DNA of 32,816 nt from an uncultured Clostridia bacterium. GTDB taxonomy: Bacteria > Bacillota > Clostridia > Christensenellales > Aristaeellaceae. The notes under the pieces were generated by a model. It was given only the letters and a program-made list of their open reading frames with translations, did no database searches and was not told the DNA's origin. This document shows positions 7,579 through 29,678 of this stretch, piece after piece. Numbering within the stretch: the stretch's first letter is position 1; each line of letters begins with the position of its first letter. The DNA lies in NCBI GenBank assembly GCA_904420265.1, contig CAJFUU010000191.1:1-32816 (forward strand), in the 5' to 3' direction. Made by a program: the position numbers and the translations under genes.

Positions 7579-7589
7579 GCATTGCAGGA

Positions 7590-8474
7590 CTACCTGCGCA
7601 GGGAGTCAACAAAGTGGCGCGGTGTACATCCGCGTATTTCCTTAAAGCATTTGATGAAGTAGCTCATATTCTCAAAGCCGCTTTCGTATCCTGCCGCATA
7701 GACGGGCTTGCCCATCATCAGCAGTTTGCTGGCGCTGTATATGCGTACGCGCTTGACGTATTGGATGTAGTTCAACCCAGTTTGCTGCTTGAACCATTTG
7801 CAGAAATAGTGCTTGCTAAAGCCCACCACTGCGGCGGCGGCATCCAGGGTGATGCGGCTGGAGTGGTGTTCATGCGTCCAGGAAATGAGCGCTCTGAGTT
7901 CCTCTTTGGTACTGGAGAGGCGCTCGACGCCGCCGTGCGAAGGAGCGATATGGCGCGCGATGATTTCGATGATGCTCAGTATCGCAATATTGCGCTTAAA
8001 GACGTTGTCGTCATTTTCAAAAAGCACATTCATAAGCGCGCGCATATCGTTATAATCGGGTATGATCATGGGCGCGTTGCAAAGCTGCAGACCGTTTTCA
8101 GCCAGAAAATTGTCAATATTGATATAGTGGCGCATGGACTCAAGCGAGATTTGCAGGCAGTGAATCGCGCCCATTTCGCCCGTGACCCAGCCGCCATGTA
8201 CCAACAGCGGCGGCACGACGACGACGGTGTTGCCGCTGATATGCTGATGACGGCCGTCGCATACCACGCTGCCGACTACGTTCTCATACAATACGATTTC
8301 CAGGGTAGACGCATAGTGCAGAGGCACATCGTCGTTGCCCAGAACGCCGCGAGTGGTCAGGCGATAGGGCACGCTTGCGGAAAGCGGCAGCGTTTCGTTT
8401 AAAAAAAGCGGCCGGCGCGCCTCGTCACCAATGCGATGGACCGCCCAGAAGTTTGTGATAGAAGCGTCGCTCAT
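7590..8474 (-). CDS. AraC family transcriptional regulator (cupin-like sensor + HTH), divergent from the GRE operon
   Basis: 294-aa ORF. C-terminal AraC HTH (FSKHYFCKWFKQQTGLNYIQYVKRVRI...GYESGFENMSYFIKCFKEIRGCTPRHF). The N-terminal ~150 aa look like an AraC ligand-binding/cupin domain. AAGGAAG RBS before the ATG at 8474. Confidence 0.9.
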   Translation of the reverse strand: MSDASITNFWAVHRIGDEARRPLFLNETLPLSASVPYRLTTRGVLGNDDVPLHYASTLEIVLYENVVGSVVCDGRHQHISGNTVVVVPPLLVHGGWVTGEMGAIHCLQISLESMRHYINIDNFLAENGLQLCNAPMIIPDYNDMRALMNVLFENDDNVFKRNIAILSIIEIIARHIAPSHGGVERLSSTKEELRALISWTHEHHSSRITLDAAAAVVGFSKHYFCKWFKQQTGLNYIQYVKRVRIYSASKLLMMGKPVYAAGYESGFENMSYFIKCFKEIRGCTPRHFVDSLRR

Positions 8475-8490
8475 GGAAATCTTCCTTTTG

Positions 8491-8524
8491 ACAATATTGT
8501 TGTATCATTCACCAATATATTGGT
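8491..8524. promoter_or_regulatory. Two perfect palindromes sharing the CAATAT half-site (candidate operators) in the divergent intergenic region
   Basis: ACAATATTGT (8491-8500) and ACCAATATATTGGT (8511-8524) are both exact palindromes. Their centres are 22 bp apart, about two helical turns. The second one abuts the putative -35 of the plus-strand operon. Confidence 0.4.
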
Positions 8525-8552
8525 TGCATTTGTGAGTGCAAACGCGCATAAT
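8524..8552 (+). promoter_or_regulatory. Putative sigma-A type promoter for the GRE operon
   Basis: TTGCAT (8524-8529), 17-nt spacer, CATAAT (8547-8552), about 80 nt upstream of the ATG at 8634. Sequence pattern only. Confidence 0.35.
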
Positions 8553-8633
8553 AATAACAAATTTATTATAACACAAAATTGTCCGCCCTGGGGAGAAATG
8601 GTGGAAATTAACAAATGCGGTGGAGGGAAAGCA

Positions 8634-10115
8634 ATGAAGTTGCTGTGGGGGGATATACACAATCACTGCGCGATTACTTACGGCCTTGGCAGTCTGGACA
8701 ATGCCCTGGAGGTCGCCCGCAGACATCTGGACTTTGTTAGCGTTACGCCGCATGCCTTCTGGCCGGACATTCCCCCGCGGGAACCGCGCACAGAATTTCT
8801 GGTCGACTTTCACGAAGAGGGATTTGCCAAGATTGCGCGCAATTGGAAGGCGGTTCGCCAGGCAATTGATGACGCCGACAATCCAGGTGCGTTTTCAACG
8901 CTGTTCAGCTTTGAGATGCACTCCAGCCGCTATGGCGATCACCACTTTGTTTCGCCCGATTCCACCCTGGAAATCGCCCGGCGCGACACGCCGCGAGAGG
9001 TAATTCTGGCCAACGCTGCCCGCGCGATTGCCGTGCCGCACCACATCGGCTATACGCCCGGCTATCGCGGCATTGACTGGGAGGCGTTTGATGAAAAGAT
9101 TACCCCTGTGGTGGAGGTCGTTTCCAAACATGGCTGCGCCATGCACGAAAACAGCGGCTTTCCCTATTACCACGACATGGGGCCGCTGGATTCGCGCAAC
9201 ACGGCTTTTTCCGGGCTGCGTCAGGGCAAACGCTTTGGCTTTGTGGGCTCGACCGACCACCATGCGGGCTTTCCCGGTTCTTTTGGCGATGGCAAGGTTG
9301 CGGTACTGGCGCGCGCCAACACGCGCGAGGATATCTTTGACGCGTTGAAAAGGCGCAATTGTTATGCTGTAACGGGTAGCCGCATCCGGTGCTCTTTTTC
9401 CCTCAATGACGCCATCATGGGCGAAGAGATTGCCGCAAGGGACAGCTACGACCTGGCCTACGCTGTGGAGGCCAGCGCTGCAATCGACCGCATGGTGATT
9501 TTCCGCAACCTTGAGCCGATGCATATTGTCGATGGCTGGAAACTCCCCGCGCGCGGCGGGCGTTACAAGTTGCGCCTGGAACTGGGATGGGGCGACAATG
9601 GCGAAGAAAGCTACCCTTGGCATGTGCGCCTGCGCGTGGACGGCGGCCGGCTATGCGGCAGCGAGATTGGCGTGCGCGGCAGGAGCGTGATTTCGCCAAC
9701 GCAGCGCATGCAGGGCGGCGAGGAGATTAACCGCCCGCGTTTTACGCCGGTGGAAATGGAGGGGCAGGAGGCACACTTCTTCTGCGAGACATTCCGCAAC
9801 AATTCCACCCTCAGCCCGTCCACGGCGCTGATGATCTGCGAAGTGGAAGGTATGCCGTCCACGCGCGTACTCTATGAAATTAATGGCCGCCGCGTAGAGG
9901 CTACAATTGCGCAGCTTTTGCAAAACGGCTTGTCGGAACAGGTCATGCCCTACAATTCGCAGGCGTTCAAGATACACACGGCCGTGCCCTGCGGGAAATA
10001 CGCCATTGAGGGCGCGCTGCATTTTCCGGACGACGGCGCGGGATTCTATCACATGGAAGTTCGTCAGTTTGATGGGGATGCCGCGTATGTCTCCCCGATA
10101 TTTATCAAGCGCTGA
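8634..10115 (+). CDS. DUF3604 / PHP-superfamily metal-dependent hydrolase-like protein
   Basis: The ORF track starts at 8436, inside the divergent promoter. I prefer the ATG at 8634, which has a GGAGGG RBS 7 nt upstream (MKLLWGDIHNHC...). His/Asp-rich metal-ligand motifs typical of PHP/DUF3604: GDIHNHC, TPHAF, EMHSSRYGDHH, VPHHIGY, GSTDHHAG. Then ALKRRNCYAVTGSRI. An in-frame ATG at 8598 is an alternative start. Confidence 0.7.
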   Translation: MKLLWGDIHNHCAITYGLGSLDNALEVARRHLDFVSVTPHAFWPDIPPREPRTEFLVDFHEEGFAKIARNWKAVRQAIDDADNPGAFSTLFSFEMHSSRYGDHHFVSPDSTLEIARRDTPREVILANAARAIAVPHHIGYTPGYRGIDWEAFDEKITPVVEVVSKHGCAMHENSGFPYYHDMGPLDSRNTAFSGLRQGKRFGFVGSTDHHAGFPGSFGDGKVAVLARANTREDIFDALKRRNCYAVTGSRIRCSFSLNDAIMGEEIAARDSYDLAYAVEASAAIDRMVIFRNLEPMHIVDGWKLPARGGRYKLRLELGWGDNGEESYPWHVRLRVDGGRLCGSEIGVRGRSVISPTQRMQGGEEINRPRFTPVEMEGQEAHFFCETFRNNSTLSPSTALMICEVEGMPSTRVLYEINGRRVEATIAQLLQNGLSEQVMPYNSQAFKIHTAVPCGKYAIEGALHFPDDGAGFYHMEVRQFDGDAAYVSPIFIKR

Positions 10116-10128
10116 AGGAGGAGAGGCG

Positions 10129-10959
10129 ATGGAAGTGGTGCTCGTTGGGAACTGCGCGCCGGCGCAGGAGTTGTTTCTCGTCGGAGAGGCCGAGGGGCTG
10201 CGGCGTGGCGAGACGGCGGGACAAGGACAGACCGCATTTTTGTGCTGCGAGGCCGAGGAACTTGAATCGCGCGCGACAGCATTGGCGCGCGACGGGGCGG
10301 ATGTCGTCCTGCCTGGCTGGATGGCGGCGTGTAGTGCGGCGCTTCTCCGCCTGGACGCTGCGTTCTCCGACTATGGCCGCAAGCTGCGAGTGCTATTCCT
10401 GGAACGCTATTTGAGCGATGTGCGCGATGTTGCACGCATGCTTGCACGGGGAAACATGGGTAGAATCGGCATGGTTGACTTTCTGCGCGCTTGGCCATGT
10501 GCGAAGCAGAACGCGCTGTATCCCCTGGCCGAGGGGTTGGGCGTGGTCACGGGTTGGTTTGGAATGCCGCAGACGGCGCGCATCTATCTCGCGCAAGAAG
10601 AGCAGACGCGCTGCGCAACGCTCACAGCGCGCTTTGCAGGCGGTGAACTTTTGAATTTGCAGGCCGTGTGTTCGCCGGCACAGCGCGGTTGGGACATGAT
10701 CTATGAACTGAGCGGCTCGCAGGGCAACCTTTGCCACGACGCATGCAGGGCGCGTTGGGTTCGCTATAGCAATGCTTCGGGCGACGCCCCGGCGGAGCGT
10801 TTTGCGCTGCTGGGCACAGGGGTATGTCCGCTGCGCGCGGCGCTGCGGGCGCTTCCTGGCTTGCTTGCGGAACAAGCGCCGGGCTTGGACGAAGAAGCGC
10901 GCGCCGTCGCGCAGGTCGTTGAACGCGCGCTTGGAGAGGAGGCTGTGACCGATGCGTAA
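10129..10959 (+). CDS. Truncated/degenerate Gfo/Idh/MocA-like protein (no glycine-rich loop, no EKP motif)
   Basis: The ATG at 10129 follows GAAGGAGGAGAGG. The ORF-track start at 9907 lies inside the previous gene. 276 aa. Only the C-terminal-domain-like part looks like the family (ARGNMGRIGMVDFLRAW..., TLTARFAGGELLNLQAV). The segment that normally carries the EKP lysine is absent. Its last 8 nt overlap the next gene. Confidence 0.55.
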   Translation: MEVVLVGNCAPAQELFLVGEAEGLRRGETAGQGQTAFLCCEAEELESRATALARDGADVVLPGWMAACSAALLRLDAAFSDYGRKLRVLFLERYLSDVRDVARMLARGNMGRIGMVDFLRAWPCAKQNALYPLAEGLGVVTGWFGMPQTARIYLAQEEQTRCATLTARFAGGELLNLQAVCSPAQRGWDMIYELSGSQGNLCHDACRARWVRYSNASGDAPAERFALLGTGVCPLRAALRALPGLLAEQAPGLDEEARAVAQVVERALGEEAVTDA

Positions 10960-11932
10960 GATCAGGGTCTGTATCCTGAGCGTGGCGCATGTACACACGC
11001 CGACCTATGTGCGTTGTCTACGGCATAATCCTGGCGCGGAGATCGTCGGTTTTTATGATGAAGATGCCGAGCGCGCACAGGCGTTTGCGCAAGAGCAAGG
11101 AGTCAAGCGTTTTTGCGATGCGCGGAAGCTTCTGGAGGAGGAAAAACCGGACGTGGCGCTGGTGTGCGCCCAGAACATGCGTCATGCCCGCTGGGTGAAA
11201 ATGGCCGCCGACGCTGGTGTGGACGTGCTGTGTGAAAAACCGCTGGGAGTGGGAGGCATGGACGCCCAGGATATGATTGACCACTGCCGGCGGCGGGGTG
11301 TGCGGCTGATGACGGCAATGTGCAACCGCTACATTCACGCCTATCGGGAGGCAGCAAACGCAGTGCGCGAAGGCAGGATTGGGCGGCTTGTCGCGGTGTT
11401 TGCCAGCAACAAAGGAACGATGCCGGGCGGATGGTTTGTCCAGCGGGAGGAGTCGGGCGGCGGCTGTATCATCGATCATACGGTACACGTGGCCGACCTG
11501 ATGAATTGCCTTGTAGGCGCGTTGCCCGAGGAGGTCTGGGCGCTTGAGGGCCACAACCTGTTTTCCATGGACGTGGAAGACTGCGCGGTGATAAACATGC
11601 GCTATCCAGGGGGCGTGCTGGTAACCCTGGACGCGAGTTGGTCGCGCACAAGGCACTTCCCCTATGGGCGGGACCTGACGCTGCGGCTGGTCGGCACCAA
11701 AGGCAATATATATGTGGACTATTTTTCTCCCAACAACGAGGTATACGCCCCCGGCGAGCGTATTTACAGCTACTACGCCGAGGACAAGGACCAGATGATG
11801 ATCGACGATTTGATTCAGTGCTATCAGGAGGGCAGGCCTTTTGGCATCACCGGAGAGGATGGCCGCGACTGTGCGCTTGTGGCGGAGGCGGCGTATCGCT
11901 CGCTCAAGGCCAAAGCGCCGGTGCGGCTATGA
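10952..11932 (+). CDS. Gfo/Idh/MocA family oxidoreductase (paralog 1)
   Basis: 326 aa. Starts KIRVCILSVAHVHTPTYV... Has VLCEKPL (EKP motif) and GGGCIIDHTVHVADLM (D..H catalytic region). 8-nt overlap with the upstream gene. Confidence 0.88.
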   Translation: MRKIRVCILSVAHVHTPTYVRCLRHNPGAEIVGFYDEDAERAQAFAQEQGVKRFCDARKLLEEEKPDVALVCAQNMRHARWVKMAADAGVDVLCEKPLGVGGMDAQDMIDHCRRRGVRLMTAMCNRYIHAYREAANAVREGRIGRLVAVFASNKGTMPGGWFVQREESGGGCIIDHTVHVADLMNCLVGALPEEVWALEGHNLFSMDVEDCAVINMRYPGGVLVTLDASWSRTRHFPYGRDLTLRLVGTKGNIYVDYFSPNNEVYAPGERIYSYYAEDKDQMMIDDLIQCYQEGRPFGITGEDGRDCALVAEAAYRSLKAKAPVRL

Positions 11933-11964
11933 GGACGGAGCAAGCATAAGGGAGGAAAAGACGC

Positions 11965-13098
11965 ATGGCGAAGGGGAAATTGAAAGTTGCGTTCATTAGC
12001 GGCGGTATGATCAGCAATGCCGCCCACATACCCGCTTATCGCAACCTGGCGGACAAGGTTGAGATCGTCGCCGTGTGCGATATTTACGAGCCGACCGCAC
12101 GCGCCACGGCGCAGCGCTGGGAAATCCCCTCTTGGTATACCGATGCTGCGGAAATGCTGGAAAGGGAAAAGCCTGATTTGGTCAGCGTATGCACATCCAA
12201 CGCCGCGCACAAGGCGATGTCGCTCCTGGCGCTGGAAAGCGGCGCCAACGTCCTGTGCGAAAAGCCGTTGGCATTTCGCTATACCGATGCCAAGGAACTG
12301 TTTGATACCGCGGCGCGACAGGGCAGGATGCTGGTAACGTGCCAATCTTCGCGCTTTACGCCGGAATATTTGGATGCGCGGGAACTGGCTGAGCACGGCT
12401 GCCTCGGCAACGTCTACTTTGCCGAAGTCAGCCGCATTCGCCGTCGCGGCGTGCCAACCTGGGGCAATTTTCACCGCAAGGACATCAATGGCGGCGGCGC
12501 GTTTTGTGACATAGGCGTGCATGTGCTCGACGCGGTGGTGTGGATCATGGGCAATCCGAAGATGAAGAGCGTTTCCGGAGCGATGAGCAGTGTGCTCACC
12601 CGCAAGGGAGAGAATCTGGTCACCAGTTTAAGCGAAGCCGGCGCGCCGCTTGGACGCTTCGGCGGTCGTTGCAGCTATACGCCCGACCAGTTCGAAACCG
12701 AGGAGTTTGCCGCCGGCAGCATTCGGTTTGAAAACGACGCCATGCTCAACTTCAAGGTTGCCTGGGCGGTCAACCTGCCCGTGAGCAACGCCATCAGCGT
12801 GGTGGGCGAGCGTGCAGGGCTCCTTTTGCCTGAATTCAGGCTGCTTTCGACCTATGACCGCTACCAGGCGGATATACTGCCCCGCCGCTTTAACGACGAG
12901 CGCAAGTATGCCGACAAAACCTTTAACGGTCACTGGCGCCTGATTGAAAACTACGTCAACGCCCTTCTGGGGTTGGAGGAGCCAATGATTCGGCCAGAGG
13001 AGACGCTCAACGTCTCGGCGATTATTGACGCCTTCTATCGCTCGGCACAGTTGGGACGCGAGGTGCGTTTTGACGAACTGACGCAATCGCCGGCCTGA
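11965..13098 (+). CDS. Gfo/Idh/MocA family oxidoreductase (paralog 2)
   Basis: 377 aa. Starts LKVAFISGGMISNAAHIPAY. Has VLCEKPLA and GGGAFCDIGVHVLDAV. AGGGAGG RBS. Confidence 0.88.
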   Translation: MAKGKLKVAFISGGMISNAAHIPAYRNLADKVEIVAVCDIYEPTARATAQRWEIPSWYTDAAEMLEREKPDLVSVCTSNAAHKAMSLLALESGANVLCEKPLAFRYTDAKELFDTAARQGRMLVTCQSSRFTPEYLDARELAEHGCLGNVYFAEVSRIRRRGVPTWGNFHRKDINGGGAFCDIGVHVLDAVVWIMGNPKMKSVSGAMSSVLTRKGENLVTSLSEAGAPLGRFGGRCSYTPDQFETEEFAAGSIRFENDAMLNFKVAWAVNLPVSNAISVVGERAGLLLPEFRLLSTYDRYQADILPRRFNDERKYADKTFNGHWRLIENYVNALLGLEEPMIRPEETLNVSAIIDAFYRSAQLGREVRFDELTQSPA

Positions 13099-13112
13099 AA
13101 GGAGGATGAGCC

Positions 13113-14246
13113 ATGGGAAGACCGCTCCGGGCCGTGGTGATCGGAGCCGCGCATGTACACATTTTGGAGGTGTGCAAGTACGTAAACGACTGCGAGGAGA
13201 TGGAATTGGCAGGCGTGGCAGACGTGGCGCCGGCCGACGCCCCGGATCTGGAGTGCGACGGGCCTTATACGCGCAGGTGGAATTTGGAGTTTGTGCGCCG
13301 TTACGGCGCGAACGTCTATGACGATTACCAGGATATGCTTGAGCAGGTACGGCCGGATTTGGCGCTGATCACCACCGAGAACTGCATGCACGTGGAGGTG
13401 GCGCACGCCTGCATTGAGCGCGGGGTGAGCGTGTGCGTGGAAAAACCCATGGCTTGCGACTTGGCCGGGGCGCTTAAGATAGCGCGCCTGGCGCGTGAGA
13501 GAGGCGTCGAAGTGTTTGTTAACTGGCCAATCGCCTGGCGCGAGTGGCTCTACCGGATGAAGGACGTGCTGGATTCCGGCCGTATGGGACCGCTGATCAA
13601 GGTGCGCTATCTTGCGGGGCAGACGGGCCCGCTCGGCCCGGGCGCGCTGCACCGGGGAACGGATGGGAAAAAGGCCGAAGAGATGGCCCCGGCGCAAAAA
13701 TCGCGGACCTGGTGGTACCAGAAGGACCACGGCGGCGGCGCGTTTCTGGATATGTGCTGCTATGGCAGCATGATGAGCGTGTGGTTGACCGGGAGCGAGT
13801 GCCAGGCCGTGTCGGCCATGTGCGGCAATTTTGCGCATGACTGGAGCGACGTGGAGGACAACGGTATAATGCTTTTGCGCTTTCCCAAAAGCGTCGCGGT
13901 CGTAGAAGGCACTTGGACGACGCCGGCGGCAGCGATCGCGCCGGGACCGGAAATCTTCTGCCGCGGCGGAGTTATCGCCTGTGAGCGGCGCGGCGCGCAA
14001 GTGGCAGTATATCTGACCGACCTGTACGGAAACGTCGAGTACCTTCCCGACATCGCGCCCGACCCGGCCCTGCGCAATATCGCCTGCGCATTTGCGGCCT
14101 ATCGCCTGCATGGGCGGGAGATGCCGCCGATCACGCGGCTGGAAAACAACCTTCGTTCGATGGCGATTCTCGACGCGGGACTGCGTTCGGTGCGCAGCGG
14201 AAAAACCGAACTGGTTGACAACGCGGTTTGGGGGAACATGGGATGA
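13113..14246 (+). CDS. Gfo/Idh/MocA family oxidoreductase (paralog 3)
   Basis: 377 aa. Starts LRAVVIGAAHVHILEV. Has VCVEKPMA. GGGAFLDMCCYGSM carries Tyr where paralogs 1 and 2 have His. AAGGAGG RBS. The stop overlaps the next start (ATGA). Confidence 0.85.
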   Translation: MGRPLRAVVIGAAHVHILEVCKYVNDCEEMELAGVADVAPADAPDLECDGPYTRRWNLEFVRRYGANVYDDYQDMLEQVRPDLALITTENCMHVEVAHACIERGVSVCVEKPMACDLAGALKIARLARERGVEVFVNWPIAWREWLYRMKDVLDSGRMGPLIKVRYLAGQTGPLGPGALHRGTDGKKAEEMAPAQKSRTWWYQKDHGGGAFLDMCCYGSMMSVWLTGSECQAVSAMCGNFAHDWSDVEDNGIMLLRFPKSVAVVEGTWTTPAAAIAPGPEIFCRGGVIACERRGAQVAVYLTDLYGNVEYLPDIAPDPALRNIACAFAAYRLHGREMPPITRLENNLRSMAILDAGLRSVRSGKTELVDNAVWGNMG

Positions 14247-15085
14247 AACGCACGGCGATGATTGCTGACATCCAGCGCAGCAGCGTGCACGATGGCCCGG
14301 GATTTCGCACAACGGTGTTTTTCAAGGGGTGCCAAATGCGTTGCGCATGGTGCCACAATCCGGAGACGATCTCCTTTCAACGGCAGATTCTTCGCTATCC
14401 TGAAAAGTGCATCGGCTGCGGGTATTGCGAGGAGGGCTGTTTTTCGGGGGCGCAGGTCGTCTGCGGACGGGAGATGTCCGTAGAGGACGTATTTGCACAG
14501 ATCGAAGAAGACCGCCCCTATTACGGCGAAGAGGGCGGCGTGACGCTTTCGGGCGGCGAACCGCTGTGCCAGGCGCAATTTGCTTTGGCGCTGATCGAGC
14601 GATGCCGTGGGGAGGGCATTGGCTGCGCGATGGAGAGTAATCTTTCAGTGGATTGGGAAGTCGCGCGACCGGTTGTGGAGCGATTATCGCTGCTGATGGC
14701 CGACCTGAAGGTCTGGGACGAGGCGTTGCACTGCCGTTATACAGGGCTGGGCAATCGCCTGGTGTGCGAAAATCTTGTCCGCACGCAGGAGACCGGCGTG
14801 CCACTGATTCTGCGCACGCCGGTCGTACCCGGCGTCAACGCCACCAACAAAGAGATCGGCGAAATCGCCGCCTTTGCCCGCGGGCTTTCCAACCTGCGCT
14901 ATTACGAATTGCTCAGCTATCATCCGCTGGGGCTTGACAAGGCGCGGGCACTGGGCCGCGAGATATGTGAATTTGATAGACCTACGCGCGAGACGATGCT
15001 TTCCTTGGCCGAAACGGCGCAGGCCATCGGCATTCCTGTGGTCATTAACGGCGTGAGACTGGAGGCTTTTCGGAAGGAAGGGTAG
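14243..15085 (+). CDS. Glycyl-radical enzyme activating enzyme (radical SAM)
   Basis: IQRSSVHDGPGFRTTVFFKGCQMRCAWCHNPE is the GRE-activase N-terminal signature with the CX3CX2C cluster. One ferredoxin-type motif, CIGCGYCEEGC. SAM-binding GGVTLSGGEPL. The ATG at 14243 overlaps the upstream stop. The ORF-track TTG at 14228 is an alternative start. Confidence 0.9.
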   Translation: MKRTAMIADIQRSSVHDGPGFRTTVFFKGCQMRCAWCHNPETISFQRQILRYPEKCIGCGYCEEGCFSGAQVVCGREMSVEDVFAQIEEDRPYYGEEGGVTLSGGEPLCQAQFALALIERCRGEGIGCAMESNLSVDWEVARPVVERLSLLMADLKVWDEALHCRYTGLGNRLVCENLVRTQETGVPLILRTPVVPGVNATNKEIGEIAAFARGLSNLRYYELLSYHPLGLDKARALGREICEFDRPTRETMLSLAETAQAIGIPVVINGVRLEAFRKEG

Positions 15086-15089
15086 ACGC

Positions 15090-17246
15090 ATGGCGGAATG
15101 GACATACCGACAGCGCATGGAGAGCCTGCGCAAGACCAAGCAGAAGCACACCTTTGCCAAGCGGGAACAGAAGGGGTATACCGACGAAGATGACTACGGA
15201 AACATACCGGTGCCGCCGGAGTTTTGTTTCCGCCCCCAGCCCAACAGCCCCAACGGAGGCATCTATGGCTACGACGGTCTTTCACGGGCGTTGGAAGGGA
15301 TGCTGGACGCCTATCCAATTTACGTCGATCCACTGGAGATGCTGTGCGGACGTTGGAGCAAGTTGTTGACCGATTACCGCGCCGACACGCGCTGGGATGA
15401 GGTGCGCTTTCCCTATGACGACCTCAAACCCCTGCAAGAGTTCTACGACATCACAAGCGGCCTGGACAACGAGGCGCACTGCACGCCGGACTTCCGTATC
15501 GGGTTGCGGCTGGGATTTGGGGGACTTTTGGAAAAGGTGCGCTTTTATCGTTGCCTTAACCCCGACCGCTCCGAATATTACGATGCCGAGGAGCGGGTGC
15601 TGTTGGCGATTCAGCGCTTCATCGGCCGTCACATCGAAAAGATCAAGGCCCTGTTGGCCGTCGAGGACCGGCCGGAGATTCGCGACAGCTTGCACCAGAT
15701 GCTCGTCGCCAATGAAAACATTGTTTCGCATCCGCCGGAGACGTTTTTGGAGGCCTGCCAGTGGACGGCATATTTTGCCAATGTCTCGCGCGCTTATAAC
15801 CGTGACGGCGCTGGCTATCAGCTCGACGTGGTGCTCACGCCGTATTACGAGCACGATGTGGCCGCGGGGACACTCGACGACGAGAAGGCGACCTTTATCC
15901 TGGCAAACCTGCTTTTAATCGACACGCGCTACTATCAGATTGCAGGGGTGGACGCCTTTGACCGGGACCAGACCTGCCGCCTGTCGTATTTGATTCTTGA
16001 GGCGGCGCACTGGCTGCGCGGCACGGCGAACCTGACGGTGCGCGTGCATGAAAACGTCTCGCGCGAGTTTTTGCGCACGGCAGTGACGTATTTGTTCCGT
16101 GACCGCTGCGCCTGGCCGCGTTTTTGCGGCGACGATGCGCTGGTCAAGGGCTTTTTGCAAAATCGCGGCGTGGACAAGCGCCTTGCCCGCGAGCGCGTCG
16201 CCTCGGGGTGTAACTGGCTGTGCGTGCCCGGGCGCGAATACTGCATCAACGACACGGTCAAAATCAACATCGCCCGCGTCTTTGACGTGGCCTTCCACGA
16301 TATGATGGACAGCCACAGCCAGCCTTCGACACAACTGCTCATGGATTACTTTCGCAGGCACCTTGAGCGCGCTGTGGACGTGACCGCGCGCGGCGTGGCG
16401 CTGCGCCTTGCGCATATCGAGCAAGTGCAGCCGGAGTTGCTGATCAACCTGCTCACCCATGGAAGCATAGAAAGCGGCACGGATATCTCGCGCTGCGCCC
16501 AGCTGCACACCATCGGCGTAGACGGCGCGGGCCTGGCCGTAGTAGCGGATTCGTTTGCCGCGCTGGAACAGCGTGTGGAGCGCGAACGGCTCGTTGGCTG
16601 GGAAGAGGTACATCAGGCGCTGCACGAGGACTTTGCCGGCATCCAGGGAGAGCGGCTGCGGCAAATGCTGGCCGCCTCCGAGCGGTACTGTCAGGGTGGA
16701 AGTCTGGGCGATCGCTGGGCGCGGCGCGTGACGGAGTGCTTTAGGCAACTGGTGCACAACCAGCCCATGCCGGAGGGCAGCCAGCTGGTGCCGGGCTGGT
16801 TCTCCTGGTCGCGCACGATTCTCTACGGCCAGCGCGTAGATGCCACGCCCAACGGCCGCCACGCTCATACGCCGATTTCCCACGGCGCCAACCCGGTTCC
16901 AGGATTTCGCAAAGACGGAGCCGTCACTGCGCAATCCACAGGCATCGCTTCGGTACAACTCAGCCTGGGCAATACCGCGCCTTTGCAACTGGAGTTCGAC
17001 CCCAGGATTTCCGAGGAGGAAGGCGGCATTGAACGCATTTTGCAACTGATTTTGCAGCATTTCCGCCTGGGAGGTACGCTGGTCAACATCAACGTGCTCG
17101 ATGGCGAGAAACTCCTGGCCGCACACAAAAACCCTGCGTTATATCCGGACTTGGTGGTGCGGGTGACGGGATTTACGGCCTATTTCGTCTCGCTTTCCAG
17201 GCAATTTCGCCAGCTCGTGGTGGATCGCTTCCTCAACGGCTTTTAG
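15090..17246 (+). CDS. Glycyl radical enzyme (PFL-like fold), short, with non-canonical Cys loop
   Basis: 718 aa. C-terminal glycyl-radical motif LVVRVTGFTAYFVSLSRQFRQLVVDR. Cys-loop region NRGVDKRLARERVASGCNWLCVPG. Other GRE-typical blocks: PETFLEACQW, DGAGYQLDVVLTPYY, HGANPVPGFRKDGAVTAQSTGIASV. Starts 4 nt after the activase stop. Confidence 0.9.
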   Translation: MAEWTYRQRMESLRKTKQKHTFAKREQKGYTDEDDYGNIPVPPEFCFRPQPNSPNGGIYGYDGLSRALEGMLDAYPIYVDPLEMLCGRWSKLLTDYRADTRWDEVRFPYDDLKPLQEFYDITSGLDNEAHCTPDFRIGLRLGFGGLLEKVRFYRCLNPDRSEYYDAEERVLLAIQRFIGRHIEKIKALLAVEDRPEIRDSLHQMLVANENIVSHPPETFLEACQWTAYFANVSRAYNRDGAGYQLDVVLTPYYEHDVAAGTLDDEKATFILANLLLIDTRYYQIAGVDAFDRDQTCRLSYLILEAAHWLRGTANLTVRVHENVSREFLRTAVTYLFRDRCAWPRFCGDDALVKGFLQNRGVDKRLARERVASGCNWLCVPGREYCINDTVKINIARVFDVAFHDMMDSHSQPSTQLLMDYFRRHLERAVDVTARGVALRLAHIEQVQPELLINLLTHGSIESGTDISRCAQLHTIGVDGAGLAVVADSFAALEQRVERERLVGWEEVHQALHEDFAGIQGERLRQMLAASERYCQGGSLGDRWARRVTECFRQLVHNQPMPEGSQLVPGWFSWSRTILYGQRVDATPNGRHAHTPISHGANPVPGFRKDGAVTAQSTGIASVQLSLGNTAPLQLEFDPRISEEEGGIERILQLILQHFRLGGTLVNINVLDGEKLLAAHKNPALYPDLVVRVTGFTAYFVSLSRQFRQLVVDRFLNGF

Positions 17247-17400: not shown

Positions 17401-18351
17401 ATGATCGAAGTATCGGGCCTGAGCAAAAAATATGGCGACAAGACCGCGCTTGAGGACGTCAGCTTTTCCGTTGGCGAGGGCGAAATCGTCGGGCTGTTGG
17501 GGCTCAACGGCGCAGGCAAGAGCACGACCATGAACATCCTTGCCGGCTATATCGGCGCAACTTCCGGAGCGGTGCGCATTGCGGGGCTGGACATACTCGA
17601 GCAGGCGCGCGCGGTGCGGGCGCTGGTGGGCTATCTGCCCGAACAGCCGCCGCTGTATGGCGAGATGACGGTGACGGAGCAACTGCGTTTTGTCCACCGG
17701 CTCTATGGCCGGCGCGGAGACTGCGCGGCAAACATGGAAAGGGTCATGCATATGACCGGCATTTTTGAGGTGCGCGGTCGGCTCATTCGCAACCTGTCCA
17801 AGGGCTACCGCCAGCGTGTGGGCATCGCGCAGGCGATTCTGCCCCGCCCCAAAGTGCTGATTTTGGATGAGCCCAGCGTCGGGCTTGACCCGACGCAGGT
17901 CGTGGAAATGCGCGCCCTGATTCGCGAAGTGGCTCAGGACACCACGGTGATTTTGTCCTCGCACATCCTCTCAGAGGTGCAGGCGGTGTGCGGTCGGGTG
18001 TTGGTACTCAACCGCGGTCGCCTGATCGCGGACGACACGCCCGGACACCTGGCCGAGATTATGCATGGCAAACGCCGCGTTGCGGTGCGCGTATTGGGCG
18101 AAGAACAGGCCGTGCGCGCCGCTCTGGAGAGCATTGAAGCCGTGGCGTCGGTTACATGCGCGGGCCATAGAGAGCTGGGCACAGTGGATTTTGTTGTCGA
18201 AGGCGCGCAGGAGCGCGACGTGCGTGTGGATGTGTTTGAGGCGTTGGCGCGCGCTGGGCTGCCGCTTTTATGCACATACGGAAGCGAGTTATCGCTCGAG
18301 GAAGTCTTTTTGCGCCTGGTTGAAAGCGACGCGAAGGGAGGGACGGGATGA
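17401..18351 (+). CDS. ABC transporter ATP-binding protein (ABC-2/GldA-like)
   Basis: The ATG at 17401 follows GAAAGGAGG. The ORF-track start at 17326 overlaps the promoter region. Walker A GLNGAGKST, signature LSKGYRQR, Walker B VLILDEPSVGLD, H-loop SSHIL. Confidence 0.9.
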   Translation: MIEVSGLSKKYGDKTALEDVSFSVGEGEIVGLLGLNGAGKSTTMNILAGYIGATSGAVRIAGLDILEQARAVRALVGYLPEQPPLYGEMTVTEQLRFVHRLYGRRGDCAANMERVMHMTGIFEVRGRLIRNLSKGYRQRVGIAQAILPRPKVLILDEPSVGLDPTQVVEMRALIREVAQDTTVILSSHILSEVQAVCGRVLVLNRGRLIADDTPGHLAEIMHGKRRVAVRVLGEEQAVRAALESIEAVASVTCAGHRELGTVDFVVEGAQERDVRVDVFEALARAGLPLLCTYGSELSLEEVFLRLVESDAKGGTG

Positions 18352-19052
18352 GCGCGATCTTTCTGCGGGAAATCCGCGCTTATTTCAAGGCGCCGCTGGG
18401 CTATGTGTTTGTGGGCGCGACGTGTCTGTTTGCCGGACTGTACTTCTATGCCTACAACCTTTTTGGCGGGGCGGCCAGTCTCGACAGCCTGTTTTCGGCG
18501 CTATTTTCGGTGGAACTTTTTCTCATTCCCATCCTGACGATGCGCCTGCTTAGCGAGGAGCGGCGCCAGAAGACCGATCAGCTCTTGCTCACTTCTCCTG
18601 TCAGCGGTATGGGAATCATCCTGGGCAAATATCTGGCGGCAATGGCTGTGTTTGCGCTCGCGGCTGGGGTGACGCTGCTGGACGCGGCGGTTCTTGACGC
18701 GTTTGCGCGCGTGAACTGGAAATTGACGCTGGGGAGTTACGCAGGTCTGGTACTCTTTGGCGCGGCGCTGGTGGCGATCTGCCTGTTTCTCTCGTCGTTG
18801 ACCGAAAGCCAGTTAATCGCGGCAGTAAGCGGTTTTTCGGTAAGTCTGTTGGTAATTCTGCTGGATACGCTGGCGCCGATTCTGGATAACGCCGTTCTCA
18901 AGGCCCTGTGCGGCTATTTGAATTTCGCCTCCCGCTATGCGCCGTTCACCTATGGCGTGTTCGCATTGGAAAACGTGATATTCTTTCTAAGCATTGCAGG
19001 ACTGTTTCTCTACCTGACGACAGCGCGGATGGAGCGCAGGAGGTGGAGCTGA
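18348..19052 (+). CDS. ABC-2 type transporter permease (GldF-like)
   Basis: 234 aa, about six hydrophobic helices. Starts MSAIFLREIRAYFKAPLGYVF, typical of ABC-2 permeases. 4-nt overlap with the ATPase gene. Confidence 0.8.
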   Translation: MSAIFLREIRAYFKAPLGYVFVGATCLFAGLYFYAYNLFGGAASLDSLFSALFSVELFLIPILTMRLLSEERRQKTDQLLLTSPVSGMGIILGKYLAAMAVFALAAGVTLLDAAVLDAFARVNWKLTLGSYAGLVLFGAALVAICLFLSSLTESQLIAAVSGFSVSLLVILLDTLAPILDNAVLKALCGYLNFASRYAPFTYGVFALENVIFFLSIAGLFLYLTTARMERRRWS

Positions 19053-19053
19053 G

Positions 19054-20487
19054 ATGAAAAGACGCAACGCCTTTGCCCTCGCGCGCCGTCTGCACGTTTT
19101 GCAGGTGCTGCTGGCGATTCTGTTGGTCATAGCAATCAACGTAGCGGTGGCGGCGCTCGCGCGGCGGTACCCTTTGCGACTGGATCTGACGGCCAATGCC
19201 CGCTATGAGCTTTCCGAGGAAAGCCGCAGTTTTCTCTCCTCGCTGGACAAGAAAATTCATATCTACGTACTGGCCGACGAGGAGGAATATGCGCGCGCCT
19301 CGACCTACACCACTTACGCCGCCACGCTGCTTGCCCAGTATCCTCTCTACGCAGATATAGAACTCACTTACGTCGATTTTGCCGCCGATCCTACTTTTGC
19401 TGCGCGCTATCCCGAGATACAGCTCGCGCAAAACGGCATTGTGGTCGAGTGCGAAGGCAGGGCGGTGGCGCTGGAAACCAGCGACCTGTTCGAATACAGC
19501 TATTCCGCAGCCAATGAAATCCAGGTCAGCGCCGTGGGTGAAGCGCAGCTTGCCGCGGCGATCGCTGGCGTACTCAATCCGGTGCGCGCGCATGCGACAG
19601 TGCTGGTAGACAACGACGCGCAGCCGGTCGAGGCGTTCACGGAACTTTTGAGGGCCAACGGCTTTGCAGTGAGCGAGGGTTCCCTGGCGTTGGGCAACGT
19701 GGACGCAGCGTGCGACATGCTGATTTTGGTCGCGCCTATGAGCGACTTCACGCAGGAACAGGTTTCCGCGCTGGAGGCATGGCTGGTCAACGGCGGCGAG
19801 TATGGCCGCACGCTGTTTTACGCCGCCGACGTTTCGCAGCCGGAGCTTCCCAACCTGGAGAACTTCTTGCGCGAATGGGGCGTGAGCGTGGATGACGGCG
19901 CGGTGTTTGAAACTTCTGCCGAGCGCACCAGTCAGAACCAGCCCTTCTTCGCCACAGTGGAGATCGACGACGAGGCGCTTGCCGGAGAACTTGCGCAGGA
20001 AAGCATGCCCATCGTCGCGCCGATGGCGCGCCCGCTGACGGTGCGCTTTGCCTTCCAGGAAAGTTACAGCACCCAGACGATTCTCTCATTTTCCGAGACA
20101 AGCGGCGTTCGTCCCTCCGACGCGTCCCAGGACTTTTCCGCTGCGGACGCTCAGCGCCGCGGGCCGATTCCGGCGCTGGTGTGCGCCTCTTTGGCACCTG
20201 ACGGCGCAAAGGCCTCGCGCATTTATGTCAGCGGTTCGGCCTCGCTTTTGGACAGTACAATTCTTGAGGGTAACGCCTTCCTCAACCGCCGCTTTTTGTC
20301 AACGCTGCTTTCGCCGACGACGCAGGGGGCGAGCCTGCCCAACTTCGTAAGCAAGCAGATCAGCGACGAGCGCGTCTACATTCCCTCCGCAACTGCCAAT
20401 ACGCTGGGTATAGCGTTGGCGATTGTGTTGCCGCTGGCGCTGATTGCGGCGGGGTTGACATTCTTCCTGCGAAGGAGACGGCTGTAA
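19054..20487 (+). CDS. GldG-like ABC-transport auxiliary protein (ABC_transp_aux family)
   Basis: 477 aa. N-terminal and C-terminal TM anchors (LLAILLVIAINVAVAAL; LGIALAIVLPLALIAAGLTFFL). LDLTANARYELSEESRSFLSSLDKKIHIYVL matches the GldG family opening. Its position after the GldA/GldF-like genes also fits. Confidence 0.7.
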   Translation: MKRRNAFALARRLHVLQVLLAILLVIAINVAVAALARRYPLRLDLTANARYELSEESRSFLSSLDKKIHIYVLADEEEYARASTYTTYAATLLAQYPLYADIELTYVDFAADPTFAARYPEIQLAQNGIVVECEGRAVALETSDLFEYSYSAANEIQVSAVGEAQLAAAIAGVLNPVRAHATVLVDNDAQPVEAFTELLRANGFAVSEGSLALGNVDAACDMLILVAPMSDFTQEQVSALEAWLVNGGEYGRTLFYAADVSQPELPNLENFLREWGVSVDDGAVFETSAERTSQNQPFFATVEIDDEALAGELAQESMPIVAPMARPLTVRFAFQESYSTQTILSFSETSGVRPSDASQDFSAADAQRRGPIPALVCASLAPDGAKASRIYVSGSASLLDSTILEGNAFLNRRFLSTLLSPTTQGASLPNFVSKQISDERVYIPSATANTLGIALAIVLPLALIAAGLTFFLRRRRL

Positions 20488-21896
20488 TGACCAGACAGGT
20501 TCGAAGGCTGATTTTTACGGCTGCGGCATTGGTGGTCGTAGCGGCGGCGGGATGGCTGCTTTTGCGTCAGGGCGAGCAAAAACAGCAAGCAGCGCAGCCG
20601 CAAGGGCGCACGCTGGGTTTTGGCGCGGTCGAGCAGGTGCGCATAAGCAATGCGGAGGGGGAATATGTCCTCGCCTCGCAGGGCGTGGATGTGTTGCCCG
20701 AGGGACTGGCCGCGGACGAGTTGACGGCACTGACAATGGAAGCGCTCGCGTCGTTTGCGGTAGGACAGAGCATCAACGCCGATGTGGACGCGGCGCTCTA
20801 CGGCCTGGAAGAGCCAAATGTGGATGCGACGATTCTCTACGCCTCTGGGCAAAGCCTTCGCGTGCGGCTGGGGAAGCGTGAAAGCGTCAGCGGCGACTAC
20901 TACTGCCGTTTTGACGACGAGACGGAGATATACCTACTCAGCCAGGATATCGCCGAGCGGCTGTTGCTTTCGCCCGAGGATTACATTTCCCTGCAAATTA
21001 CGCCTGCTTGCCGCACACAAACTTCGCTTTCGGCGGTAACGGACGCACGCCTTTATACGCCGCAGGGAGAGATATCCATTCGCTCCTGCGCCAATCCCGA
21101 CGAAGAGACGCGCTTGGAAATGCTCTCCTTTGGCGCTGTGACCCACTTGGTCGACGGGCCGGGTATCGTACACGAAATGGATCGCACCTATGGACAGGAG
21201 ATTTTTGACGCTCTGTTTAACCTCTGCGCCACCGAGGTAGTCGCCTACGGGCTGGACGAAGCGGGGCTCGCGCAGATGGGATTTGACCAGCCGGATGCGG
21301 CGGCGGAGTTTTTCATGCGCAATGGCGAAGAGCCGGATACGCCCGAGGAGCGCTGGGTTCTGCGCGTGGTCTTTGAGGATGGAGAGAACGCCTTGATCAC
21401 AGCAAATGACAGCGGCGTGGTCTATCGCGCGCCGCGGCCGGCGTTTGCAAGCGCCCAGTACGAGCAGTTGGTGATGCGCTGGTTTGTCTCGCCTTTGATG
21501 ACGGATTTGCGCGCGCTCTGCGTAGAGATTGACGGGCTTGAGCGCGTCTACGAAATCGGCGGCAGCGCCGCGCAGCCGGAAATTTACTGTGAGGGCAAGG
21601 CGATCGACCTTACGCGGTTTCGTTCGTTTTACACGTTGGCCGTCAGCGCCGCCAGCAACGGCGACTATATGGGAATTGCGCAGCCGCAGGGTGAACCGGT
21701 GCTGACGCTGCGCTATCGCTATAAAGACGAGCAAAAGGCAGACGACGTCCTGGAGATGTACGCAATGGACGCGCGTACGTTGTTGGTGTCTGTCAATTCG
21801 GTAGCAGAATTTGCGATGCGTCGAAACTATGCCGACGTATTCATGCAGGCGATTGAGGCGCTGGAAACGGGCGGGGAGATCGCGCAGACCTGGTAA
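20487..21896 (+). CDS. DUF4340-like membrane-anchored protein
   Basis: 469 aa with a single N-terminal TM (LIFTAAALVVVAAAGWLLL). The start overlaps the gldG-like stop (TAATG). The call rests mainly on the conserved position downstream of gldG-like genes. No catalytic motif recognised. Confidence 0.5.
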   Translation: MTRQVRRLIFTAAALVVVAAAGWLLLRQGEQKQQAAQPQGRTLGFGAVEQVRISNAEGEYVLASQGVDVLPEGLAADELTALTMEALASFAVGQSINADVDAALYGLEEPNVDATILYASGQSLRVRLGKRESVSGDYYCRFDDETEIYLLSQDIAERLLLSPEDYISLQITPACRTQTSLSAVTDARLYTPQGEISIRSCANPDEETRLEMLSFGAVTHLVDGPGIVHEMDRTYGQEIFDALFNLCATEVVAYGLDEAGLAQMGFDQPDAAAEFFMRNGEEPDTPEERWVLRVVFEDGENALITANDSGVVYRAPRPAFASAQYEQLVMRWFVSPLMTDLRALCVEIDGLERVYEIGGSAAQPEIYCEGKAIDLTRFRSFYTLAVSAASNGDYMGIAQPQGEPVLTLRYRYKDEQKADDVLEMYAMDARTLLVSVNSVAEFAMRRNYADVFMQAIEALETGGEIAQTW

Positions 21897-22909: not shown

Positions 22910-23953
22910 ATGAAGAAGATGCTTGTAACCCTGCTGGCTTGCGCGCTTATACTCTGCAGCGTTGCCGGCGCCGAATCGACCTCTGTGCGCGTCGCCTCCC
23001 ACAACGCGGTAGTGGAAGGCAACGCCTACCGCGTTCAGTACGAGCTGGACATTCAGGATGCGGCTGAGGCCGCGGCCGAGTATGGCTTTGATGTGTCCTA
23101 CTCGTCGTTTGTGGCCAACAACGACCCCTCTCTCGAAAGCCAGATGCTCGAGCAGAGCATCAACGAGGGCTATGACATCATCCTGATTGACCCCGTGGCT
23201 CCCACAGGACTCGACCCGATCATCGAGAAAGCCAGAGACGCGGGCATCTACTGGCTCAACTGCGACTGCGAGTACTACTCCGACGAGATTATCAACGTCT
23301 GCCTGGATCAGTATCAATGGGCGTATGACGGCGCGAAGTGGCTGGCCGAAGAACTGGGCGAGGGCGCAAAAATCGTCGTCTTTGACGCCACGGATGGCAA
23401 CGCCGCCAACGAGCAGCGCGAGCAGGCTTTCAATGATGTCATTGAGGAGTACAACCTCGAAGTAGTTAAGCGCGTCAACCACAACTGGAACGCGGCGCTT
23501 GCGCAGCAGCTGATGACCGAGATTATCAACTCCGGCGTCGAGTATGACGGCATCCTGTGCTCGAACCAGGCGTTCTTCATTTTCAATGCCCTGGACGAGG
23601 CGGGCGCGGACTATCCCAAGGCCATCGCCCTGGACGACCACACCGGCTGGGCGCAGAACATGCTTACCATCAACCAGGACGAGGAAGTCATGCCCTATCT
23701 GTTCATCAGCAACACGCCTGGCGTGGGCGCTATCGCGCTCAACATCGGCCTGGGTCTGCTCAGCGGCGGCGAACTGCGCGACGATATCTATGGCAATCCC
23801 GACTACAACTCCATCTACATCGCCTCAACGTTCCAGTTTTCCTATGAAAACCAGGAGGACTATCGCGACTATATGATGGCGCTGGGCACCAACAACAAGG
23901 CCACTTTCTGGTACGACTATGAAGAGTGCCAGGAACGCTACTTTGTTTCCTGA
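22910..23953 (+). CDS. Sugar ABC transporter substrate-binding protein (periplasmic-binding-protein type I, RbsB-like), secreted/lipoprotein
   Basis: The ATG at 22910 follows AAGGAGG. Signal peptide MKKMLVTLLACALILCSVAGA, with a possible LLAC lipobox. PBP-I type body (GYDIILIDPV, KARDAGIYWLN, KIVVFDATDGNAANEQRE). Confidence 0.8.
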   Translation: MKKMLVTLLACALILCSVAGAESTSVRVASHNAVVEGNAYRVQYELDIQDAAEAAAEYGFDVSYSSFVANNDPSLESQMLEQSINEGYDIILIDPVAPTGLDPIIEKARDAGIYWLNCDCEYYSDEIINVCLDQYQWAYDGAKWLAEELGEGAKIVVFDATDGNAANEQREQAFNDVIEEYNLEVVKRVNHNWNAALAQQLMTEIINSGVEYDGILCSNQAFFIFNALDEAGADYPKAIALDDHTGWAQNMLTINQDEEVMPYLFISNTPGVGAIALNIGLGLLSGGELRDDIYGNPDYNSIYIASTFQFSYENQEDYRDYMMALGTNNKATFWYDYEECQERYFVS

Positions 23954-23962
23954 AGTCAATCT

Positions 23963-23998
23963 GGCCATCCCTGCCGAAAGCCGTCGGCAGGGATGGCC
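23963..23998 (+). other. Perfect 14-bp-stem hairpin directly after the binding-protein gene (intercistronic stabiliser/attenuator candidate)
   Basis: GGCCATCCCTGCCG (23963-23976) pairs perfectly with CGGCAGGGATGGCC (23985-23998), with an 8-nt loop. No U tract follows. A weaker 7-bp hairpin (CGCCATG/CATGGCG, 24043-24059) follows, then GTGTTTG. Confidence 0.5.
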
Positions 23999-29676: not shown

Positions 29677-29678
29677 GC

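Follow-up and report, generated by a model that had tools for sequence, protein, structure and literature searches.

A divergent and presumably oxygen-sensitive glycyl radical enzyme (GRE), distinguished by an altered catalytic loop and by a new conserved enzymatic partnership with dehydrogenases of the Gfo/Idh/MocA family, is encoded on contig CAJFUU010000191.1 (assembly GCA_904420265.1) of an uncultured Clostridia bacterium of the family Aristaeellaceae. The whole stretch analysed, 32,816 nucleotides (nt) in length, is referred to hereafter as the window. The GRE is the last product of seven co-directional, tightly packed open reading frames (ORFs) on the + strand at 8634-17246, as seen from the ORF listing and a direct reading of the junctions, and the conserved unit comprises the last four of these, which encode two Gfo/Idh/MocA proteins (GfoA and GfoB), a radical S-adenosylmethionine (SAM) GRE-activating enzyme (activase) and the GRE itself. 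This coupling of a radical enzyme to dehydrogenases is real and undescribed, and it may serve the catabolism of sugars that are oxidised to keto forms before the radical step.

Relatives of the GRE were searched for in one genome per species, which gave 558 stretches encoding a GRE relative, and the best 80 loci (designated by L numbers) were analysed by tblastn with the window proteins and by de novo clustering of all the locus ORFs. Gene orders were counted in the 66 loci with at least 3.6 kb of DNA upstream of the GRE. The order GfoA-GfoB-activase-GRE recurs in dozens of independent genomes with 54-77% GRE identity: the activase is present, adjacent to the GRE, in 57 of the 66 loci, the GfoB type stands directly upstream of the activase in 59 and the GfoA type upstream of GfoB in 44, the remaining loci carrying other Gfo types or a GfoA type missed by the crude ORF calling. 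Three homologue neighbourhoods (73%, 63% and 57% GRE identity) all show two Gfo proteins of about 375 amino acids (aa) each, followed by the activase and the GRE, with the core genes overlapping or nearly touching, and an independent look-up of one GfoB homologue (P0278) returned the same order. The percent identities of the four core proteins fall together from locus to locus. The linkage of the GRE to Gfo/Idh/MocA dehydrogenases, which the first-pass annotation (made from the sequence alone) had proposed for the window, is thus physical as well as evolutionary and conserved across a large family, and its suggestion of looking for the gene order in other anaerobes led to many such genomes.

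More than 120 listed GRE relatives share 56-78% identity with the window GRE and are 705-744 aa long; among them, every named or source-labelled one is of metagenomic or uncultured origin and bears a generic name only. A close homologue already assigned to a pathway would have spoken against novelty; only generic names were found, at any identity. The best 80 loci all come from uncultured (metagenome-derived) genomes, labelled mainly Christensenellales, Acutalibacteraceae, Oscillospiraceae, Lachnospiraceae and Victivallales and obtained mostly from human, ruminant, rabbit and chicken guts and from anaerobic digesters. Four loci with 56-71% GREs and identical gene order (L013, L032, L010 and L056) lie on contigs labelled Burkholderiales, thaumarchaeote, Limnocylindria or Paludibacteraceae, probably owing to binning error or possibly to horizontal transfer. 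A second GRE-like ORF in L052 is a paralogue within the family (60% and 55% identity to the window GRE), and those in L011 and L067 show just 22-26% identity to it.

The conserved unit is of four genes because the other three of the block, encoding a DUF3604 protein, a 276-aa protein and a 326-aa Gfo protein, are not conserved in the manner of the core. The DUF3604 gene was found in one other listed locus only (L008); L007 and L008 alone have homologues of the 276-aa protein (38-43% identity), and the 326-aa Gfo protein has close ones (65-71% identity) in L007, L008 and L010 alone, with weak matches of 21-27% identity in four loci of the gut clade, to which most loci belong. These genes are peripheral, lineage-specific additions, and the whole seven-gene block was ruled out as the conserved unit, since the three accessories are confined to the nearest relatives. 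The ORF table and the junctions agree with the first-pass annotation on the order and co-direction of the seven genes, their overlaps and gaps and the divergent AraC gene, and Pfam/NCBIfam matches and the translations bear out its three full-length Gfo/Idh/MocA proteins with EKP motifs, followed by the activase and the GRE; its single functional unit of seven genes, by contrast, resolves into four conserved and three lineage-specific ones. Its description of the 276-aa protein as a truncated Gfo-like protein gains weak backing from a match of 69 columns to the C-terminal domain of the 326-aa Gfo protein (pairwise BLASTP, E = 3e-5) and none from Pfam or NCBIfam; the protein is at best a remote relic of that domain, so that the count of four Gfo-type proteins was overstated. 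The DUF3604 protein carries a GDIHNHC motif near the N-terminus and scores 36 bits with the NCBIfam CehA/McbA metallohydrolase model (cut-off 80), and no sequence relative of it was found in the PDB. The best NCBIfam model for the 326-aa Gfo protein is inositol 2-dehydrogenase (124 bits against a cut-off of 355).

As judged from its glycine and cysteine loops, the adjacent activase and the predicted fold, the 718-aa protein is a GRE of the pyruvate formate-lyase (PFL)-like branch. The glycyl motif RVTGFTAYF, with Gly694 as the predicted radical residue, is invariant in 23 aligned members, and RVTGFTAY is found in 81 of the 82 locus ORFs. The catalytic Cys of PflD, PFL2, glycerol dehydratase and HypD has its aligned counterpart in Cys374, which is likewise invariant in the family alignment. 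The most informative difference from the characterised GREs lies in the loop around this residue, which reads GC[N/H]W in all 82 locus ORFs and in 149 of the 153 full-length family proteins (GCNW in the window GRE, GCHW in a few members), instead of the GCxE present at the aligned position in all five PDB relatives compared (PflD, Archaeoglobus fulgidus PFL2, glycerol dehydratase, HypD and 8id0). All six C-O eliminases and three isomerases of the GRE superfamily keep this Cys-X-Glu (CXE) motif, the Glu of which hydrogen-bonds to the substrate hydroxyl and deprotonates it (PMC13450708). The window family departs from the GRE eliminases and isomerases in having Cys-Asn/His-Trp in place of Cys-X-Glu. 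The Cys-Cys pair of PFL (C418/C419 in E. coli PflB) is also missing, Gly preceding Cys374, and a second catalytic Cys in the stretch C-N-W-L-C, which would permit PFL-like two-Cys chemistry, was ruled out, since position 378 varies between Cys, Ala and Ser.

Other positions around the active site are shared with known enzymes. His130 and Asp388 align with His164 and Asp447 of glycerol dehydratase, and Y282-Q283 with its Y339-Q340. Two family-specific invariant motifs, RDGAG (238-242) and PGWFSW (568-573), fall at the H281/S282 loop and Tyr640 of glycerol dehydratase, respectively, and together with Trp376 they may form an aromatic-rich pocket. The top PDB sequence matches are E. coli PflD and YbiW (E = 8e-46, and 1e-75 with the family profile), at 24-26% identity. 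The PDB matches to BSS and MASS rank with the remotest, and no genes for small beta/gamma subunits of the X-succinate synthase type were called between or beside the core genes in any locus. The protein scores 260.9 bits with the PFL2/glycerol dehydratase subfamily model TIGR01774 (cut-off 678) and 62 bits with the PFL model TIGR01255 (cut-off 994), far under every equivalog cut-off. An AlphaFold2 (AF2) model, with a predicted local distance difference test (pLDDT) score of 84.8 and a predicted template modelling (TM) score, pTM, of 0.87, has a predicted ten-stranded PFL-like barrel fold and gives TM scores of 0.75-0.84 with PFL2-type GREs in Foldseek, at 15-23% identity; Foldseek singled out no nearest characterised GRE, the PFL2-type structures being about equidistant. 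Residues 600-632 (16887-16985) fall below pLDDT 50 in the model, although they are rich in family-invariant residues (ANP..FR.DGA.TA...G.A), and could represent a mobile segment close to the glycyl radical domain. The activase scores 260 bits with TIGR02494 (cut-off 174) and carries the CX3CX2C motif as CQMRCAWC, together with a ferredoxin-like insert.

Of the dehydrogenases, GfoA matches the PDB entries of DgpA1 (9m3d, E = 4e-61) and DgpA (7xr9, E = 3e-51) over residues 4-368, the next-best match being at 4e-25. DgpA is an NAD(H)-bound Gfo/Idh/MocA enzyme of gut Lachnospiraceae that oxidises the glucosyl C3 of puerarin and other glycosides (PMC9939296; bioRxiv 10.1101/816074), and its glucose pocket consists of H186, K100, D182, R159, E264, F189, F223 and W166 (PMC9939296). 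In a pairwise alignment, K100, R159, W166, D182 and H186 were found to be identical in GfoA, with the numbering unchanged, and each of the five is kept in at least 90% of the 64 GfoA-type sequences from the related loci. The substrate of the module could be a neutral gluco-configured carbohydrate, such as a glycoside, an anhydro-sugar or a closely related pyranose. GfoB is atypical, its family motifs being IIGxxHMH in place of GxGxxG, EKP, and D..cYG with Tyr at the catalytic D-x-x-x-H/Y position; its best PDB matches are weak and include the sugar 3-ketoreductase KijD10 (1e-9). A canonical DgpABC C-deglycosidase cluster was considered and ruled out: neither the window nor the related loci yielded a homologue of DgpB or DgpC, and the TIM barrels of the window weakly match epimerases and hydroxypyruvate isomerase. 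The dgpA genes are known to be often unlinked from dgpBC. In many gut-clade loci a second pair, a 364-aa Gfo protein and a GfoB-like protein, precedes GfoA-GfoB (L011, L029, L039-L041, L049, L053, L056, L058, L070, L072, L079 and L086); the pair was counted in 18 loci. The recurrent pairing of A- and B-type Gfo proteins hints at hetero-oligomers.

The genes surrounding the core are of a sugar type. In the Christensenellales-type subclade, which includes the window, they comprise a CUT2 importer, two xylose-isomerase-like TIM barrels and an ABC2/DUF7088/DUF4340 module. The CUT2 binding protein is distant kin of glucose, ribose, allose and polyol binding proteins, and homologues of the importer flank the core in the subclade loci. 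The 311-aa TIM barrel is weakly similar to D-tagatose/psicose 3-epimerases and has homologues of 59-85% identity beside the core in subclade loci, and homologues of the 290-aa one occur at 48-59% identity in L004, L012-L014 and L017; overall, the TIM barrels resemble ketose 3-epimerases or hydroxypyruvate/2-oxo-tetronate isomerases, all under the cut-offs. The ABC2 module, associated with the core in this subclade only, lies next to it in about ten Christensenellales-type loci in three arrangements (downstream on the strand of the core, or upstream on either strand), which suggests a functional link to the core. Across the loci, a 430-aa Gfo protein with a hydroxypyruvate-isomerase-like TIM barrel is present in 23, four kinds of AraC regulator occur, and a FAD-dependent oxidoreductase (PF12831, 400 aa) is encoded directly downstream of the GRE in 12 (for example L036, L045, L065, L071, L075 and L076). 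In L041, L059, L069 and L073, an AraC gene, a Cys-rich 337-aa protein and 4Fe-4S proteins are found downstream of the GRE.

The most likely reading is catabolic: a gluco-type pyranoside or anhydro-sugar would first be oxidised at C3 to a ketone, and a radical reaction would then break a bond in it or rearrange it. This general scheme is about as likely to be right as wrong, and any specific substrate is much less likely. In the lineage of the window, the substrate would be imported by the CUT2 system and sensed by the AraC regulator. GfoA, by its similarity to DgpA, would oxidise the C3 hydroxyl to a 3-keto sugar, and the activase would install a radical on Gly694 of the GRE, in keeping with the motifs of both. 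The Cys374 thiyl radical would then abstract the weakened hydrogen next to the new carbonyl, giving a hydroxy-keto (semidione-type) radical. Such a radical would be far more acidic than a simple hydroxyalkyl radical and the Glu base dispensable, which would explain the replacement of Glu by Trp in every member. It might drive a C-O (or C-C) cleavage or rearrangement not performed here by ionic lyases of the DgpBC or LgdB type, after which GfoB (Tyr-type and ketoreductase-like) and the TIM-barrel isomerases could turn the keto product into a normal sugar or ketose. An extension of this scheme, doubtful as it stands, would make the GRE the first radical enzyme to act on a 3-keto sugar oxidised beforehand by a DgpA-type dehydrogenase: a base-free radical glycoside or anhydro-sugar lyase or isomerase, able to cleave C-O or C-C bonds beyond the reach of ionic lyases, as in unactivated C-glycosides and ether-type sugars. 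If true, it would add a new class of GRE reaction and a new route of carbohydrate or glycoside breakdown, present in hundreds of gut and digester species.

The sugar context of the loci (CUT2 importer, TIM barrels, AraC regulators and extra Gfo genes) is consistent with this catabolic reading, as is the fact that the nearest characterised GREs by sequence, PflD and YbiW, also act on sugar rings. The first-pass annotation had likewise supposed that a keto-intermediate feeds a radical step, and the supposition gains support from the close relationship of GfoA to DgpA and from the loss, in the GRE, of the general-base Glu that alcohol substrates require when they have not been oxidised. Both substrate and step order stay conjectural, oxidation before the radical step being suggested only by the missing Glu of the CXE motif. 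Several points weigh on the other side. The chief one is that 3-keto sugars readily undergo ionic beta-elimination, as with DgpBC, LgdB and relatives, so that the need for a radical is left unexplained. Asp239, Glu383 or His130 could serve as an alternative base; the substrate of the GRE would then be a polyol not yet oxidised, and the radical step would come first. GfoA lacks E264 of the DgpA pocket and keeps F223 only approximately; the gut-clade loci hold no transporter, kinase or aldolase through which the module could connect to central metabolism; and the listed genomes are all uncultured and hence offer no physiology to lean on.

The reversed order of events is unlikely. In this alternative, the GRE would be YbiW/PflD- or diol-dehydratase-like and would act first, with another base, on a non-phosphorylated polyol or 1,5-anhydro-hexitol, and the Gfo enzymes would process the deoxy-keto product. 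PflD and YbiW as top PDB matches, the retention of His130 and Asp388 and the presence of 1,5-anhydro-D-fructose reductase within the same Gfo family speak for it, and the invariant Asp239 (RDGAG loop) and Glu383 (Cys loop) could be the bases. However, every characterised eliminase or isomerase has the CXE Glu where all members here have Trp, the identity to PflD and YbiW is low and Foldseek shows no preferred neighbour. The source annotations, 'formate acetyltransferase' or 'pyruvate formate lyase family protein', would instead make the protein an ordinary pyruvate/keto-acid formate-lyase or glycerol/propanediol dehydratase placed beside sugar genes by chance; without the PFL Cys-Cys pair and the dehydratase Glu, with scores far under the equivalog cut-offs (62 against 994 for PFL, 261 against 678 for TIGR01774) and with a neighbourhood conserved across dozens of genomes, this is hardly credible.

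A cyclitol route is improbable. Here the Gfo proteins would make an inosose from myo- or scyllo-inositol or a related, possibly quinate-like, cyclitol, and the GRE would dehydrate or open the carbocycle in place of IolE/IolD. Inositol 2-dehydrogenase is the best or near-best NCBIfam match of all the Gfo proteins (far under the cut-off), TIM barrels of the IolE/IolI superfamily are present, polyol and inositol binders are among the distant relatives of the CUT2 binding protein and the window encodes a shikimate/quinate-type dehydrogenase 1.7 kb upstream. Against this, the match of GfoA to DgpA surpasses that to any inositol dehydrogenase structure by 26-36 orders of magnitude and the protein keeps the glucose-pocket residues of DgpA, and homologues of IolB, IolC, IolD and IolJ are found in no locus. 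The shikimate/quinate link through the upstream dehydrogenase was itself ruled out, as this gene is not conserved beside the core elsewhere. A role in biosynthesis or export, with a sugar modified to a deoxy or keto form for a secreted product or a polymer of the cell surface and handled by the ABC2/GldG-like system, has very little to recommend it beyond the persistence of the ABC2 module beside the core through three rearrangements in the Christensenellales-type subclade: catabolic loci are the ones that typically have AraC regulators and a sugar importer, the module is missing from most loci (the gut clade), and glycosyltransferase, nucleotidyl-transferase and polymerase genes were not seen in the examined loci.

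The features of the window at and around the core are collected in Table 1. The junctions within the seven-gene block include an 8-nt overlap (10952/10959), an ATGA overlap of the GfoB stop and the activase start (14243-14246) and a 4-nt gap (15086-15089), the other gaps being 13, 32 and 14 nt, and a purine-rich, Shine-Dalgarno-like stretch lies 5' of each of the seven starts. Consensus scans revealed no convincing intrinsic terminator inside the block and no strong + strand sigma-70 match in the divergent intergenic region; promoter-like sites were as many as expected from shuffled sequence; Rfam and repeat scans found nothing within the region of the block.

Table 1. Annotated features of the window at the GRE core and its flanks (positions in nt of the window)
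Feature	Position	Strand	Basis and remarks
AraC-family transcriptional regulator	7590..8474	-	Pfam HTH_18, HTH_AraC, AraC_binding; divergent from the seven-gene block
Divergent intergenic region, 159 nt, AT-rich	8475..8633	.	Presumed promoter/operator (putative function)
DUF3604/PHP-like metallohydrolase, 493 aa	8634..10115	+	Pfam DUF3604 E = 1e-12; lineage-specific accessory
276-aa protein, family unassigned	10129..10959	+	No Pfam/NCBIfam match; lineage-specific accessory
Gfo/Idh/MocA oxidoreductase, 326 aa, IolG-like	10952..11932	+	Three Gfo Pfam domains, EKP, His-type catalytic motif; accessory
GfoA, DgpA-like pyranoside 3-oxidoreductase, 377 aa	11965..13098	+	Full-length DgpA matches in PDB; core gene 1
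GfoB, atypical Gfo/Idh/MocA protein, 377 aa	13113..14246	+	Gfo Pfam domains; core gene 2
Radical SAM GRE-activating enzyme, 280 aa	14243..15085	+	TIGR02494, Radical_SAM, Fer4_12, Fer4; core gene 3
Divergent GRE, 718 aa	15090..17246	+	PFL-like E = 2e-74, Gly_radical E = 2e-13; core gene 4
ABC2 ATPase/ABC2 permease/DUF7088 (GldG-like)/DUF4340, four genes	17401..21896	+	Pfam
Xylose-isomerase-like TIM-barrel protein, 311 aa	21928..22863	+	Pfam AP_endonuc_2 E = 3e-28
CUT2-type sugar ABC importer (binding protein, double-ATPase, two permeases)	22910..27665	+	Peripla_BP_4, ABC_tran x2, BPD_transp_2 x2
Second xylose-isomerase-like TIM-barrel protein, 290 aa	27680..28552	+	Pfam AP_endonuc_2 E = 2e-26

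Homologues of the AraC gene (61-66% identity) occupy the same position in L007 and L008, and many gut-clade loci have AraC genes of other types beside the core. Upstream of the cluster, a histidine kinase and a response regulator with an AraC-type output domain are encoded at 1186-4642 on the - strand, and in L002 (3403-6745) and L009 a dCache kinase, a similar regulator and a binding protein lie directly upstream of GfoA; the core cassette may also be under two-component control. The AraC gene is separated from the shikimate-type dehydrogenase by about 750 nt (6845-7589) that hold no credible ORF, the sole long one being Arg/Cys/Ser-rich and the 245-aa product of the gene caller having no Pfam match; this stretch may be non-coding or the remains of a gene. 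Following the second TIM barrel, a NagA-type N-acetylglucosamine-6-phosphate deacetylase (303 bits, above the cut-off) and a ROK kinase are encoded at 28549-30659; in L004 the equivalent position is taken by a PIG-L deacetylase. The NagA and ROK kinase genes raise the possibility of a link to amino sugars, though not of a conserved one; as parts of the pathway they were ruled out, with single weak matches in L017 and L080 only. A tRNA-Ala gene (anticodon GGC) was predicted by both ARAGORN and Rfam at the extreme end of the window (32739-32815, - strand).

GREs perform reactions that are difficult to achieve without oxygen, and the newly assigned GRE clades (choline, hydroxyproline, isethionate and anhydroglucitol) each revealed a gut-relevant metabolic route. 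The clade described here is present in at least 558 species-representative genomes, in a fixed partnership with sugar-oxidising dehydrogenases. Assignment of its substrate would define a new type of GRE reaction, show why anaerobes add radical chemistry to the 3-keto-sugar strategy and possibly explain the fate of a currently unaccounted dietary or host glycoside. A review of GREs of June 2026 contains no enzyme of this kind and points out that whole clades of GREs have yet to be validated by experiment (PMC13450708), and nothing linking a GRE with Gfo/Idh/MocA proteins, DgpA-type chemistry or DUF3604 was found in the full-text literature, subscription-only papers being outside the search. The two sources thus uphold the claim of the first-pass annotation that no characterised GRE system is built on Gfo/Idh/MocA dehydrogenases; a description elsewhere could conceivably exist.

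Among the known systems, the GRE 1,2-eliminases (glycerol and propanediol dehydratases, HypD, CutC and IslA) share with the window GRE the fold (TM 0.75-0.84, Foldseek E of about 1e-28 to 1e-36) and the Gly and Cys loops, including the equivalents of glycerol dehydratase His164/Asp447, and differ from it by the CXE Glu and by an identity of just 17-23%. Unlike these enzymes, the core has no microcompartment or aldehyde-processing genes nearby in the window and the three homologue neighbourhoods. YbiW and PflD, the GRE isomerases of E. coli 'anhydroglycolysis' (PDB 8id7/8yjn and 8yjo), open the ring of 1,5-anhydro-hexitol-6-phosphate (PMC13450708). They resemble the window family in the PFL2-type sequence, the adjacent activase, the sugar-ring substrate (putative here) and the His and Asp positions flanking the active site. 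However, they keep the CXE Glu, which deprotonates the C2 hydroxyl, where the window family has Trp; their loci carry a phosphotransferase system, an aldolase and a phosphatase and no Gfo genes; and the proteins of the window family fall short of theirs by about 60-90 residues, carry a barrel deletion and have a conserved N-terminus of their own.

Among pathways, those that act through 3-keto sugars come closest, resembling the module in its other half. The levoglucosan system LgdA/B/C, Bacteroides BT2156-2160 and DfgC/D combine a Gfo/Idh/MocA 3-dehydrogenase with xylose-isomerase-like TIM barrels, as do the accessory genes here, although the window proteins score far under the cut-offs of the LevoglcsnDh, BT_2158 and BT_2159 models. 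None of these systems contains a GRE or an activase, and DgpABC has no GRE, in contrast to the module of the window. A further likeness is to the DgpA-DgpB/C system for C-glycoside deglycosylation of Dorea sp. PUE (PDB 7xr9/7xre and 9m3d), of whose DgpA GfoA is a full-length relative with five pocket residues in common. The dgp operon also holds a second Gfo protein, DgpF, as the core holds GfoB (bioRxiv 10.1101/816074), and both systems belong to gut Clostridia and lie near TIM-barrel proteins. In the dgp system the step after oxidation is carried out by a Mn-dependent ionic lyase, the place of which is presumably taken in the window family by the GRE.

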